Shown here one piece after another: positions 10,403-16,106 of a stretch of 64,000 nt of DNA. The DNA comes from a bacterium (GTDB lineage Bacteria > Patescibacteriota > Minisyncoccia > 1-14-0-10-42-19), in assembly GCA_030690215.1 (NCBI GenBank), contig JAUYHD010000004.1, positions 31,090 through 95,089 of the forward strand. Direction: 5' to 3'. Numbering within the stretch: position 1 is the stretch's first letter; every line of letters starts with the position of its first letter. The translations under genes were made by a program, and so were the position numbers. The notes under the pieces are model-generated. The model worked only from the letters and a program-made list of their open reading frames with translations. It was not told the DNA's origin and searched no databases.

Positions 10403-10992
10403 ACTTAAATCCTTATTTATTTTTTTAAATTTTAATTGCGGGAGGAACGGGTGGTGCTCCGCCTTCATTAAAACTCCGGCGAGACAAGCACGACGACAAG
10501 CCACCAGATTACAGCACACGACTACACAACAACAGGTATTTACCCCGCCTTAATTTTGCTCTTTATTACTTCATTTCTTTATTAAAAAGAAAGAGCGTTA
10601 TATTGCCGGCAATGCGCTTCGTCCATACGGGGTGTGCTATCCGCACACGCGCATTGCAAAACAATACAAAGCAAAATTAAAGCGGGGTCTCAATTCCGCC
10701 ATGCCATTCTCTATTTCCTAAAGGAACGGCGGAATTGGATAACCATCACATATTTCAGCGGGATTGACCACTTAGTACAGCTCGGCTTAACTCCTCACAG
10801 AGCGTACACCTGCTGCCTATCAACCTCGTCATCTCCGAGGGGTCTTAATGATTCCTAATCTTGAGGTGGGCTTCCCGCTTAGATGCTTTCAGCGGTTATC
10901 CCGTCCCGACATAGCTACCCAGCGATGCTCTTGGCAGAACAGCTGGTACACCAGAGGTCAGTTCTCTTCGGTCCTCTCGTCACATTCTCCCC

Positions 10993-11805
10993 TATTTCTA
11001 GGAGTGCAGACTATATCTTCACCTTTCTTTAATAAAAAGTTAAGGTGTTGGCGTATTACAAACATAAGCCTGTTTCTTTTGAAAGAAACTTTCCGGCATT
11101 ATGAAAGTCCGCTCCGACATAAAGTCAGAGACAAGTCGTTACGGGGTCAGACCTAAAATTTTATGCAATTCGCTTCTTGTTTTTTTCTTTTTGGTAACGT
11201 AATTTTGACTTTGAATAACCAAAATCAGATCAACAAGTTTTGTCAATTGCCTTTTCGTTAGCTTTTGGAACTTTGTGTTGGATAACACTTCACACGCTTG
11301 TAAGAGCGCGCGTGTTTGAGGTTTTTTAAAACGAATATACGGCAACAAACTTTTAAGAATATTTCTTATCTGTTTATAACCATTTATTCGCAGCTCAGTC
11401 ATTCCATCATTTCTGTCAGAAATATAACCGATACCCAAGACTTCTTTTATCCAATATAAAGTCTTTTTATGCCTAGCATCTTGATAAAAACAAATTGTAG
11501 TCATAAAACGAATCCCTCGTTTGCTATCGCTTCGCTTTTTGAGCTGAAGCATAAGACTCCCATCTCCATCAAGAAAACCAGCAATATACGCGAACTTAAT
11601 TTTAGATCGACTTCCCACGATATTATCTTACTCTATTTCTGGTCCTCAAGCGAATAGTAATATCAAAGACCGTATGATATTACTTTTCATCGAACCGAGA
11701 AACATGAATGAAGATTCCACCGTTATTAGCCACTTTTTCATCACACATTTCTGCGTGAAGTAGCAAGGCCCCAAAAGGGCTTACTAGAAGAAACTCCTCT
11801 CAAGA
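10993..11805 (-). mobile_element. Putative group I intron in the 23S domain V/VI region carrying a LAGLIDADG homing endonuclease gene
   Basis: About 810 bp replace roughly 35 nt of conserved sequence between the exon blocks '...ggtcctctcgtcac' and 'gcagtagataggagaccaacctgtctcacg'. Confidence 0.65.
11139..11618 (-). CDS. LAGLIDADG homing endonuclease (single-motif, I-CreI-like size)
   Basis: A 159-aa ORF with the motif YIAGFLDGDGSLMLQ, lying inside the 23S insertion. Confidence 0.85.
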   Translation of the reverse strand: MGSRSKIKFAYIAGFLDGDGSLMLQLKKRSDSKRGIRFMTTICFYQDARHKKTLYWIKEVLGIGYISDRNDGMTELRINGYKQIRNILKSLLPYIRFKKPQTRALLQACEVLSNTKFQKLTKRQLTKLVDLILVIQSQNYVTKKKKTRSELHKILGLTP

Positions 11806-11835
11806 ATCAACGCCTGCAGTAGATAGGAGACCAAC

Positions 11836-12208
11836 CTGTCTCACGCATGTTTTGCTTCGTAAACCCGCTGGCCTGCGCAGAATATACGCAGAATCACGCA
11901 GACACGAAACATTCCCGCTATTACTAGCGGCATTGGACTATATCTTCATCCCACTTGTGCTGGGAGGCTAACATGTAGTCTCTACAGGGTCATAAGAAAA
12001 TATAAATGAATTTTTCTTAGACTTCCCTCGGTATTGTCCTTATGAAAGGATTTTACCGATATAAGTTAGCTTCTCGCTCAAAAATTACTCTTTGAGGCCG
12101 CCGTGATTGAGGTTGTTTCCTATCTTTATTTCATAGACGAAAAATATGTCGTTGGATTCAAACAGTCGATGAGCCAATCAGTAGTTCAAGATCGTAATGC
12201 GCGATTAG
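11836..12208 (-). mobile_element. Putative ORF-less intron in 23S between ...CTGTCTCACG and ACGGTCTGAACCCAGCTCGCG
   Basis: A 375-bp insertion splits the contiguous conserved sequence GAGACAGTTCGG.../...ACGTTCTAAACCCAGCTCGCG, which is uninterrupted in E. coli. Confidence 0.55.
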
Positions 12209-14299: not shown

Positions 14300-14860
14300 C
14301 CCCCGCTCTTTTGGCACTATTCCAGTAAACTATTTTGAATACGCTTCTTAAGATGCCCGATTACCGCTCCGTGATGTTTTAGTTTTTCTTCACGAAGCAA
14401 TGCATCTTTTTTACTAAGATACGATTCGTAATAAATAAGTTTGAATGGAGCGTAATGTTTTGTTGATCTATTTTCTCCTTGATTGTGTTCTTTCAATCTT
14501 CTCCGAAGATCATTCGTACTCCCCACATAGAAAAAATTTTTATTTTTACTTTTAAGAAAATAAACATAATACATAATCAATAATTATACCAACAAAATAA
14601 TAACGCCAAAAGAGCGGGGTTAGACGAGCAGCATGCAAAAACTCGTTGGCTCATTCTTCAATAGGCACCCGGTCACTCGTACCTCGCTCTCGCTCGGCAC
14701 TTCGTAATTTTCAATTTTTAATTTCTAATTTTTAAACATTTGAAAATTGGAACATTAAACATTGAATAAAAATTGAGAATTGAAAATTAAAAATTTTGTG
14801 CTGAACAAAAGTGAGGCACAAGCTCCCAGTCCTTGTAAGTATATGGTTTCAGGTACTATT
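14300..14860 (-). mobile_element. Intron-like insertion in the 23S 5' half carrying a GIY-YIG endonuclease gene plus an AT-rich low-complexity tail
   Basis: 23S-conserved sequence resumes on both sides (about 14290 and about 14870, CTCACGGTACTAGTTCACTATCGGTC). The insert contains the ORF 14317..14580 and 'aattgaaaatt' repeats. Confidence 0.5.
14317..14580 (-). CDS. GIY-YIG nuclease (catalytic domain only, 87 aa)
   Basis: Motifs YYVYFLKS...FYVGSTNDLRRRLKEHN, matching the GIY/YIG/Arg/Glu pattern. Confidence 0.85.
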   Translation of the reverse strand: MIMYYVYFLKSKNKNFFYVGSTNDLRRRLKEHNQGENRSTKHYAPFKLIYYESYLSKKDALLREEKLKHHGAVIGHLKKRIQNSLLE

Positions 14861-15299
14861 TCATCGCCCTCATCGGGCTGCTTTTCACCTTTCCCTCACG
14901 GTACTAGTTCACTATCGGTCTTGAAGCGTATTTAGCCTTGGGAGCTAGTGCTCCCGGCTTCCCCCGAGGCATTCGTTCCTCGAGGTACTCAAGAGTACAT
15001 TCCGAGAGACAGAGATGATTTTCGTGTACGGGGCTATTACCCTCTTTGGCCCGCCTTTCCAGACGAGTTCTACTAACCAAATCTCTTCTTGTAAATCTCT
15101 CCTGAGAGTAAACTCTCAATGAATGTATCTTTCAACCCCCCTCGACTCGATGCTACGCACCTCGCTCGGGGTAAACCCATCTTTTAAAAAACGAAGATTG
15201 GGCTTGCCCTGAGTGAGATTCGCAGAATCGAATCGAAGGGTTTGGGCTCTTCCCGTTTCGCTCGCCGCTACTAAGGGAATGGACCACATCTCGCTTCGC

Positions 15300-15670
15300 T
15301 CGAGTGGAATTCCCAATTTTCAAGCACCAATTTCAAAACAAATCCCAATGACCAAAATCCAAAACAAGGGTTTTTGAAAATTGAAACATTAAAAATTGAT
15401 TGCCCGCCCAAAGGGCGAGGTCTCGCCTAAGGCGGAAAAATTAGAAATTAAAAATTGGAAATTCCGCGCCGAACAAAGTGAGAAGCAGCATTGTTTTCTT
15501 TTCCTCTAGGTACTGAGATGTTTCACTTCCCTAGGTGCGCTCCGCGCTCTGCACGGAAACCCAAATTTCCAAGCACCAACCCCCAAACAATGCAAAAATT
15601 CAAATGACCAAAACGGATTTGGAATTTGAAATTTAGAATTTGTTTGGAATTTGGATTTTGTAATTTAGGA
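15300..15670 (-). repeat. Two related AT-rich expansion inserts in the 23S 5' domain ('cc(a/c)aatttccaagcaccaa...caaatgaccaaaa' copies at about 15318 and about 15558, plus 'aattgaaa/aatttgga' low-complexity runs)
   Basis: Direct repeat and low-complexity sequence lying between conserved 23S blocks. Confidence 0.5.
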
Positions 15671-16106
15671 TTTCCGTGCAAAGCACGGTCTCCGTGGTTT
15701 ACACGGAGGGGTTTCCCCATTCGGACATCTCCGGATCAAAGGTTGCTAGTCACCTCCCCGAAGCTTATCGCAGACACGCCACGTCCTTCATCGCCACTTC
15801 AAGCCAAGGCATCCGCCATATACTCTTATTCCCGCTGAAATATACAATGATTATAAATGCTATAATCACCTGTTGTTTATATTCTATTGTAAATTTGCTC
15901 ACCTTTACTGCCGGCATCTGTTTAATAAAAAAATGATAAACAGGTGTCGGGAGTAAAAATATTGTGTACCCTCCTCCGCACTTCTCCGCTAAAGCTCCGA
16001 AGTGCTTCGGGCGGGTTATTTTTCGCAACTACGCTTCGCGTAGGCAAAAAATGAATAATCGCGCCGCAAGCAGTGCGATATCTCACGCTATGCTTGCAGC
16101 TTTGCG

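Follow-up and report, generated by a model that had tools for sequence, protein, structure and literature searches.

Two group I introns and a GIY-YIG hairpin cassette in a 23S rRNA gene of about 5.1 kb, with related cassettes in 16S rRNA and RNase P RNA genes

The 64-kb stretch of contig JAUYHD010000004.1 analysed here (64,000 nt in full, hereafter the window) carries on its minus strand a bacterial 23S ribosomal RNA (rRNA) gene, which is interrupted by two inserts assigned as group I introns, by a hairpin cassette encoding a small GIY-YIG nuclease and by further hairpin inserts. With all inserts the gene spans 15841..10754, its 5088 nt comparing with 2904 nt in Escherichia coli, and about 2.2 kb of this is inserted sequence. 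The strand matches the Rfam model for bacterial large subunit (LSU) rRNA (RF02541, LSU_rRNA_bacteria) with 2004.7 bits. The extent of the gene was set at about 15841..10754 because the alignment to E. coli 23S reaches approximately position 2882 at window position 10772, across two large gaps, and because the two gene ends are joined by a stem in which 15854-15830 pairs with 10763-10739 (inverted repeat I20, 25 nt, 84% complementary; 5' arm of the processing stem at 15830..15854 and 3' arm at 10739..10763, both on the minus strand). Further, the helix 1 pairing of the gene, UUCAGCGGGA / UCCCGCUGAA, can be read from the sequence. Together, the E. coli alignment and the end stem overrule the LSU end at 12128 given by cmscan, which is an artefact of the model end having been forced in front of the first intron. 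A 5S rRNA gene (10298..10403, minus strand; Rfam RF00001, 70.4 bits) follows about 350 nt downstream, and the Rfam scan found no 16S rRNA gene within the 64-kb window.

Numbering follows an E. coli 23S copy of 2903 nt (L001:832-3734). Near the 3' end this numbering equals the canonical one minus 1, and the two intron sites are for that reason named U2593 and U2656 here. Insert junctions were set by exact motif search against the conserved 23S flanks; a global affine alignment to E. coli was also tried for the junctions and discarded, as it scattered short spurious blocks inside the inserts. An earlier, sequence-only reading of this DNA had proposed a 23S gene of about 5.1 kb at 10750-15830, which is borne out except that it fell about 11 nt short at the 5' end. 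Insert-laden 23S genes are well documented in the candidate phyla radiation (CPR), for which a survey reported inserts in 82% of the genes, up to 16 per gene, with a mean insert length per gene of 1.3 kb and a maximum of 5.75 kb (Tsurumaki et al. 2024, J Bacteriol; PMC11270868, which also cites Brown et al. 2015 on insertions in CPR rRNA genes). The approximately 2.2 kb of inserts found here lies within this published range, and the gene is a further example of an already documented pattern.

Intron 1 (12215..11846, minus strand, 370 nt) follows E. coli U2593, near the peptidyl-transferase centre, at a site that we take to be shared with the I-CreI intron of Chlamydomonas. Its flanks are ...GGGUUCAGACCGU and CGUGAGACAG..., with the junctions GACCGU / UGAUG...AACAUG / CGUGAGACAG, so that a U ends the upstream exon and a G ends the intron; the joined exons give E. 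coli-type sequence. This insert is the one that the sequence-only reading had described as about 375 bp long and ORF-less, an open reading frame (ORF) of at most 33 amino acids (aa) being the longest it holds, and the flanks named at the time, GGGTTCAGACCGT / CGTGAGACAG, are indeed contiguous in E. coli. The Rfam group I intron model RF00028 matches at 12119..11914 with 67.6 bits, above its gathering score of 50. An intron at this site (L2593) is present in 24 of the 25 related CPR loci that span it, with lengths of 251-781 nt and a terminal G throughout, and some of these introns contain ORFs of 160-200 aa; LAGLIDADG_1 ORFs have been reported as common at site 2593 in CPR 23S genes (PMC11270868). 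An exon of 63 nt (11845..11783, minus strand, E. coli 2594-2656) separates intron 1 from the second intron.

Intron 2 (11782..10981, minus strand, 802 nt) interrupts the sarcin-ricin loop after E. coli U2656, at UAGU / ACGAGAGG, and lies between ...CUUCUAGU and ACGAGAGGACC...; within an alignment ambiguity of 1 nt, its position is site 2657 of the survey. It corresponds to an insert of about 810 bp with a LAGLIDADG gene at 11139..11618 in the sequence-only reading, and the ORF is intact as supposed. As the ORF splits the intron, Rfam aligns only the 3' core, comprising P8, J8-7 / P7', GAAGAUAUAGUC and P9. The structure was read from 23 homologous introns, which were aligned by MAFFT after removal of the ORF. 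In every one of these, exon UAGU pairs with an internal GCUA to place U.G at the splice site, and the terminal base is G. Pairing of P2 (5 bp), P3 (4 bp), P8 and P9 is present in 21-23 of the 23 homologues, with 2-5 pair types per position and compensatory changes in all four helices, and a sixth, loop-proximal P8 pair holds in only 13. On these comparative grounds we place intron 2 among the group I introns.

The gene inside intron 2 (11618..11139, minus strand) is intact and encodes a predicted LAGLIDADG homing endonuclease of 159 aa from a conserved GTG start. The protein matches Pfam PF00961 (6.1e-11), retains the motif YIAGFLDGDGS and has I-CreI, I-MsoI and I-CvuI as its closest relatives in the PDB (E down to 1e-27), which points to a single-domain enzyme of the I-CreI type. 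A genome-collection scan returned 32 relatives, and at 23 loci with an extractable intron the gene, 57-88% identical, occupies the same rRNA position. The loci with this same-site gene belong mostly to Nomurabacteria and Paceibacterota, but also to Niyogibacteria, Azambacteria, Kazan and others, and the closest ones are Nomurabacteria and Paceibacterota metagenome-assembled genomes (MAGs). Since the relatives at the same site are CPR, we assign the window to this group. The four most distant matches (39-41% identical; L030-L033) lack an intron at U2656, and in at least three of them the gene is housed in the L2593 intron instead. The putative intron-less target at the site of intron 2 reads TTCTTCTAGTACGAGAGGACCGAAG. 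LAGLIDADG_1 ORFs are known from both 23S sites, 2593 and 2657, as 23IS12 and 23IS14 (PMC11270868), and the same source reports cleavage of the intron-less target by I-ShaI, a related CPR enzyme of another 23S site.

The third element is of a different kind. A cassette of 319 nt (14619..14301, minus strand) takes the place of the loop in the E. coli 604-624 hairpin, presumably helix 28. Its stem was delimited by junction motif search and stem comparison, with the 5' arm CCCCGCTCTTTTGGCG at 14604..14619 and the 3' arm TGCCAAAAGAGCGGGG at 14301..14316, the latter abutting the stop codon of the ORF (both on the minus strand). The minimum free energy fold closes the cassette with a 20-bp stem (z -5.9), which prolongs the native hairpin and leaves the ORF in its loop. 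The corresponding site is empty in relatives and in E. coli, as in L015 (GTCTAACCTTGTATGAGGGAAGGCAAAGGG), and the empty-site hairpin has the form GTCTAACC-loop-GGGGAGGCAAAGGG. An Rfam search of 10200-16200 at a permissive threshold (E<=1) gave no group I or group II core within 14301-14619. Between the 5' arm and the start codon there is a TGgTATAAT box (14583..14591, minus strand), read by eye as resembling an extended -10 element, 8 nt from the ATG, which may act as promoter for an essentially leaderless messenger RNA (mRNA).

The ORF of the cassette (14574..14317, minus strand) is intact and encodes a GIY-YIG nuclease of 85 aa (PF01541, 4.3e-19) in which the motifs YVY...YVG...R...E are visible. 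Its start is likely the ATG at 14574 and not the TTG at 14580, since GIY-YIG paralogues start likewise. The best match in the PDB is 1zg2, the UPF0213 protein BH0048 (E 2.7e-7), and since the protein consists of the catalytic domain alone, with this as its nearest structure, it is not a homing endonuclease of the I-TevI type. Three more small GIY-YIG genes occur in the window, all on the minus strand, at 44617..44378, 63992..63795 and 24748..24536, and are 51%, 52% and 39% identical to the rRNA copy, respectively. Outside the ORF, no DNA homology was detected among these four paralogues; as they share no DNA flanks, the paralogues of the window do not define the cassette, which is defined instead by close homologues in other genomes.

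The exact nuclease is absent from a public protein collection, whose nearest proteins are 66-85% identical to it, and their contigs, together with a metagenome scan, yielded further copies of the cassette. The resulting 13 cassettes have a common architecture: a terminal stem of 15-19 bp whose 5' arm follows the pattern C(C/T)C(C/A/T)GC(C/T)CTTTTG(G/A).., a leader with TGnTAnnnT 4-10 nt from the ATG (a box counted in 9 other copies), an ORF of 83-86 aa, and a 3' arm that is complementary to the 5' arm and begins 0-6 nt past the stop codon. The cassettes are thus bounded by terminal inverted repeats, and the GIY-YIG domain is their only ORF, with no transposase. In 23S rRNA a copy was found at the same site as here in an independent sample (L041). 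In 16S rRNA the copies (L034, L035, L042, L043, L044, L046, L047, L048, L049, L050 and L053) sit in the helix 40 hairpin directly 5' of GGAGGAAGGUGGGGAUGACG, where Rfam small subunit (SSU) alignments show insertions of 307 and 309 nt in place of a 5-nt loop. The third host is the RNA of ribonuclease P (RNase P), with copies in L036, L038 and L079 and the 3' flank AGGAAAGUCCG. The L036 RNase P RNA scores 109.7 bits with RNaseP_bact_a (gathering score 100), and when it is folded without the cassette the flanks pair as P1 and P2; since these partners flank it, the cassette stem stands in for P3, inside rnpB. In this locus the cassette occupies 4001-4258, next to 4266-4695. The L038 RNA reaches only 67.6 bits against the gathering score of 100. 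RNase P RNA is missed by standard searches in some CPR (PMC8172020), and a cassette in P3 may be one reason for this.

Both parts of the cassette are under selection. Against cassette homologues, the ratio of nonsynonymous to synonymous substitution rates (dN/dS) of the ORF is 0.07-0.30 with saturated synonymous sites, all 195 of 195 stem positions over the 13 cassettes are in standard pairs with two-sided changes at 12 of 15 positions, and the stem sequence is still recognisable despite the saturation in the ORF; it is this combination that argues for selection on protein and stem alike. Based on these comparisons, the cassette would be a discrete mobile unit consisting of a conserved stem, a TGnTATAAT box and a nuclease of 85 aa on which purifying selection acts. 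In each of the three hosts it lies directly 5' of a GGAGG(A/C)AAG-like sequence, which hints at a target preference or at microhomology. Looser relatives are also found: among 80 metagenome relatives of the nuclease gene (48-72% identity), perfect inverted repeats of 12-20 bp hug the ORF in 27 loci, and a tRNA gene on the same strand lies within 100 nt in 23.

The tRNA-adjacent loci include L056, L067, L072, L074-L076, L084, L087, L088, L090, L092, L094, L096 and L105, and it is often seen in these that an arm of the inverted repeat reaches into the acceptor stem, or that a partial second copy of the tRNA 5' end is present upstream. As a separate observation, the cassette-bearing 16S genes of L034 and L035 also contain a group II intron domain (RF01998, 36.8 bits) as well as LAGLIDADG_1/_2 ORFs (regions L034 972-1057, L035 2360-2445, and L035 339-1091 and 2459-2887), in line with the group II introns published for 16S position 1400.

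The remaining inserts are mostly hairpins, all on the minus strand. In the 5' domain, an AT-rich hairpin of 126 nt at 15676..15551 takes the place of 6 nt of the model (cmscan) in the E. coli ~150-176 hairpin, helix 10, and folds with -51.8 kcal/mol (z -5.5), and an AT-rich hairpin of 206 nt with a GC core at 15490..15285 takes the place of 2 nt (cmscan) in the ~222-233 hairpin, helix 12; a 150-nt stretch of the latter does not fold below shuffled controls (z -1.7). These are the two related AT-rich expansions that had been placed at 15300-15670. Three inserts are new relative to the sequence-only reading, namely a GC-rich, near-perfect hairpin of 103 nt at 15240..15138 in the E. coli ~271-281 region (86 nt versus 5 by cmscan; -60 kcal/mol, z -8.7), an extra hairpin of 56 nt at 14267..14212 in the ~640-655 region, and an AT-rich insert of 43 nt at 12484..12442 near E. 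coli ~2367, which was located by alignment. Finally, an AT-rich hairpin of 146 nt at 14821..14676 (z -4.8) replaces a 13-nt tip in helix 25 and is separated from the cassette by 56 nt of conserved 23S sequence (14675..14620), both inserts falling between E. coli ~540 and ~620.

Several of these inserts share sequence with other parts of the genome or with related genomes. A 28-mer, AATTTCCAATTTTTAATTTCTAATTTTT, is found 4 times in the window with at most 2 mismatches, compared with 0 in 100 shuffles. Two copies are in rRNA inserts (helix 12 and helix 25) in opposite orientations, and two are intergenic, at 25493-25520 and 41210-41237; the match of the helix 12 insert to 41210-41249 extends into the CCGCCnnAGGCG module (40 nt, 90%; I4). 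The GC hairpin has a copy of about 105 nt, 79% identical, in the 23S gene of the related MAG L005 (4279-4385), where it is in another helix, equivalent to window ~13146-13112. Relatives covering the 5' half of 23S are without the cassette and without the AT-rich inserts. Given the shared 28-mer, the GC hairpin at another helix in L005 and the relatives lacking the inserts, the hairpin inserts look like recently acquired elements more than ancient expansion segments. One candidate was dropped: a match of 15406-15420 to the cassette arm (2 mismatches), considered as a collapsed solo cassette within the helix 12 insert, is too short and generic.

Concerning the intergenic copies themselves, both stretches (25487-25660 and 41204-41440) are directly upstream of minus-strand genes, encoding a TPR protein and an ABC ATPase, and share blocks of 34-105 nt with 89-97% identity that include the AT-rich 28-mer, as well as a CCGCCAGAGGCGGATCTGCCTCAGGCA module that recurs at 6970.

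We regard it as very probable that the gene is the single, functional 23S gene of a CPR bacterium (Patescibacteria, Paceibacteria/Nomurabacteria-like) with parasitic insertions of two classes. The unusual length and the 16S gene not being found within 64 kb might raise the suspicion of an assembly chimera or a decayed pseudogene, yet this is extremely improbable given a full-length model match with conserved cores that are intact once the inserts are removed, a 5S gene in the expected place after the 23S, and independent contigs from other samples in which these introns and this cassette recur at identical sites; moreover, unlinked 16S and 23S-5S genes are common in CPR (PMC8172020). The sequence-only reading had further held that the gene is heavily colonised and must be spliced or extensively processed, with the GIY-YIG region as an intron-like insert of about 560 bp ending in an 'aattgaaa' tail. 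In phage and organelles, GIY-YIG endonucleases are classical passengers of group I introns, and the insert does break a conserved rRNA block, so that the idea of self-splicing introns in all three of the ORF- or insert-bearing regions has some appeal. It is nevertheless very unlikely for the GIY-YIG region, where the permissive Rfam search returned neither group I nor group II signal, where the insert is a simple stem-loop extending a native hairpin around a domain-only protein, and whose cassette recurs with its own stem in three unrelated RNAs; in addition, every CPR GIY-YIG ORF of the survey is in a non-intron insert (PMC11270868). What had been taken for one insert is thus two, of 319 and 146 nt, and although the GIY-YIG ORF is intact and the 'aattgaaa' sequence is real, the latter belongs to the separate insertion in helix 25. 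The comparison with covariance models that had been suggested gives group I matches for the two introns (67.6 and 37.3 bits) and none for the GIY-YIG insert, and the AT-rich expansions have expansion-like pairing and no intron core, being hairpin extensions at helix tips. The heavy colonisation of the gene stands, as does, for the two group I introns at essential sites, the need for removal.

Two further alternatives concern the hairpin inserts. The AT-rich expansions may have arisen in place by slippage of 7-nt units, the intergenic similarity then being compositional and not that of a dispersed mobile repeat, and we consider this only somewhat less probable than not. In the AT-rich inserts 7-nt units recur periodically, with period-7 and period-14 arrays in all of them according to TRF, both intergenic matches are immediately upstream of start codons, a place where promoter DNA rich in AT is expected, and the absence of the expansions from relatives is compatible with slippage as well; set against this are the specificity of the 28-mer, with its four copies in both orientations and none in the shuffles, and the reach of the 41210-41249 match into the non-repetitive CCGCCnnAGGCG module. 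It is also possible, at a slightly lower probability, that the hairpin inserts, cassette included, are never excised and are kept by the mature ribosome in the manner of bacterial expansion segments. All of them are at peripheral helix tips and closed by their own stems, and, with the promoter-like box that the cassette appears to bring along, its expression need not depend on excision. However, perfect stems of 20 bp are good substrates for RNase III, helix 25 is a classical site of intervening sequences (IVS) at which the survey deems the short CPR inserts IVS-like (PMC11270868), and a coding loop of 260 nt protruding from both the ribosome and RNase P would be unusual.

A number of observations weigh against the reading of functional introns and a mobile cassette that we favour. 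For intron 1, attempts to draw P1 by eye gave no canonical U.G pair, and in the best candidate, formed by exon GUUCAGACCGU and intron ACGAUCUUGAAC, the splice-site U is opposite A instead of the canonical G, as is likewise the case in relatives. The RF00028 match of intron 2 (37.3 bits, E 5.9e-7) is below the gathering score of 50, and the P7 assignment in the MAFFT alignment is paired in only 11-23 of the 23 homologues, although the sequence itself is conserved. With regard to the cassette, a sigma-70 scanner found no -35/-10 promoter in it, its 85-aa protein has no recognisable DNA-binding domain beside the catalytic one, and neither target-site duplications nor flanking direct repeats are seen at the rRNA or rnpB cassettes, so that homing and transposition are both hypothetical. 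As for the AT-rich inserts, the sequence that they share is of low complexity, and slippage instead of mobility could account for the similarity. A scan of 10 ORFs of the window turned up no RNase III gene, which may lie elsewhere in the genome; splicing of the introns, excision by RNase III and retention of the hairpins are all inferred.

Considering the evidence as a whole, a sequence of events can be proposed. Both introns would be transcribed as part of the pre-rRNA and, judging from their family membership, would then self-splice to produce the joins U2593-C2594 and U2656-A2657; they must be removed, since both positions are universally conserved and functionally essential to the ribosome. 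A dimer of the LAGLIDADG protein would cleave sarcin-ricin-loop DNA that lacks the intron, in other cells or alleles, and thereby drive homing, and the protein may also help splicing. The five or six hairpin insertions at peripheral helix tips, each with its own closing stem, would lengthen the host helix and, by analogy with classical intervening sequences, either be tolerated as expansion segments or be cut out at their stems by RNase III with no ligation, which would leave a fragmented but functional 23S rRNA. An IVS-type shape is found in the cassette, with its 20-bp stem on the 604-624 hairpin, and in the inserts of helices 25, 10 and 12, which form long hairpins. As the cassette would bring along the stem of the host helix, the host RNA should still fold. 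More speculatively, the GIY-YIG protein might be made from a leaderless mRNA driven by the extended -10 box of the cassette, and might promote insertion of the cassette at hairpin-encoding DNA, perhaps via hairpin or cruciform DNA. In this regard, we see about even chances that these cassettes are an undescribed family that moves between loops of 23S, helix 40 of 16S and P3 of rnpB, with looser relatives abutting tRNA genes. 'Expansion segments' of CPR rRNAs would in that case be footprints of mobile hairpins hopping between helix tips, as exemplified by the 103-nt GC hairpin, whose helix here differs from that in L005.

The closest parallel is provided by the CPR survey, which, as here, has multiple inserts per 23S gene, a concentration of group I introns in domain V, ORF-less forms at the sites of ORF-bearing ones and short non-intron inserts in IVS-type helices. 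In that survey, 15 GIY-YIG ORFs were counted in 23S inserts and 15 in 16S inserts, with none in introns, and were judged sparse and 'outside the context of homing' (PMC11270868); the conserved terminal stem, the leader box, the RNase P RNA hosts and the adjacency to tRNA genes are not described there. Nor did the searchable literature, which is incomplete and hence weak evidence, contain a description of these four features for GIY-YIG cassettes. Compared with the I-CreI system of the Chlamydomonas chloroplast LSU gene and other L2593 introns, intron 1 is at the same site and the intron 2 protein is a member of the single-domain family to which I-CreI belongs (I-CreI / I-MsoI / I-CvuI). In contrast to that system, the L2593 intron here is ORF-less, having lost its gene or never had one, and the I-CreI-like gene is in the other intron, 63 nt downstream, in the sarcin-ricin loop.

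The hairpin inserts in turn resemble the bacterial 23S IVS of Salmonella, Leptospira and Coxiella (helix 9/25/45), which are stem-loops in place of a peripheral helix loop, in some cases with a small ORF that has free-standing paralogues, such as the S23p ORF of the Coxiella IVS (PMC4990558), and whose patchy distribution has suggested horizontal spread; their known fate is excision by RNase III without ligation. The cassette differs from them in encoding a GIY-YIG nuclease instead of S23p, in its site, as the 604-624 hairpin is not a classical IVS helix, and in occurring in 16S rRNA and RNase P RNA as well. The nuclease itself is similar to the stand-alone UPF0213 / YhbQ proteins (1zg2, BH0048) in its size (~85-100 aa) and in comprising the catalytic domain only; to our knowledge, these are ordinary chromosomal genes, for which no link to inverted repeats or structural RNA genes has been described. 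A likeness may also be drawn to REP/RAYT elements and miniature inverted-repeat transposable elements (MITEs), which are short DNA palindromes or hairpins scattered over a genome, and in particular to REPtrons, in which a nuclease gene lies between inverted repeat copies, comparable to the 12-20 bp repeats in 27 of the 80 related loci. Unlike RAYT, however, the cassette nuclease has the GIY-YIG and not the HUH/Y1 fold, and a further difference is that the cassette copies in rRNA and rnpB show no target-site duplication.

Additional features of the window are given here for completeness. The rRNA layout at 10298-18062 comprises 23S and 5S only, with a tRNA-Val gene at 18062..17989, 2.1 kb upstream of the 23S gene, a DUF7768 gene and a mechanosensitive-channel-like gene in between, and a promoter-like TTGACA-16-TATACT at 16459..16432, about 590 nt upstream of where the 23S gene begins. 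In the GIY-YIG paralogue at 44.6 kb (44915..44378, minus strand), an insert of about 265 nt, bounded by direct repeats of about 20 nt (..GCTTACGCTCGGGG), separates MFYVYILKSEA from the rest of the coding sequence, and at ~31.9 kb (~31880-32030; repeat D10, 79% over 89 nt) there is a related insert between the same coding fragments. A palindromic repeat, ACGGGGCATACCCCGTTAGGCTACATCG, occurs as 28-nt units in 7 copies (16451, 23821, 23967, 24461, 25786, 25936 and 41455), including a 150-nt tandem pair at 25774-26073, and inverted copies of it flank the GIY-YIG gene at 24748..24536 in a manner reminiscent of REP elements around a RAYT gene. Lastly, an ORF of 1020 aa (34157-37219, plus strand) with internal DNA repeats ~240-255 nt apart (D2-D4, D9, D14) probably encodes a repeat-domain surface protein.

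In terms of novelty, the insert-laden CPR 23S gene, both intron sites and the presence of GIY-YIG ORFs in non-intron inserts are documented already (PMC11270868), while the conserved stem of the cassette, its leader box and its spread over three structural RNA genes are new, not having been met in the searchable literature. For the detection, annotation and phylogeny of such organisms based on rRNA, intron-aware models are needed, as illustrated by the Rfam alignment of this 23S gene, which ends 1.4 kb before the true 3' end. If the proposed spread of the cassettes is true, a tiny nuclease gene that brings its own stem would have colonised three different essential structured RNAs. This would provide a concrete origin for some of the bacterial 'expansion segments' and intervening sequences and would explain why some CPR RNase P RNAs escape detection by covariance models, and the cassette, with ~320 bp and one 85-aa protein, would represent a compact system in which to study target finding by domain-only GIY-YIG nucleases.

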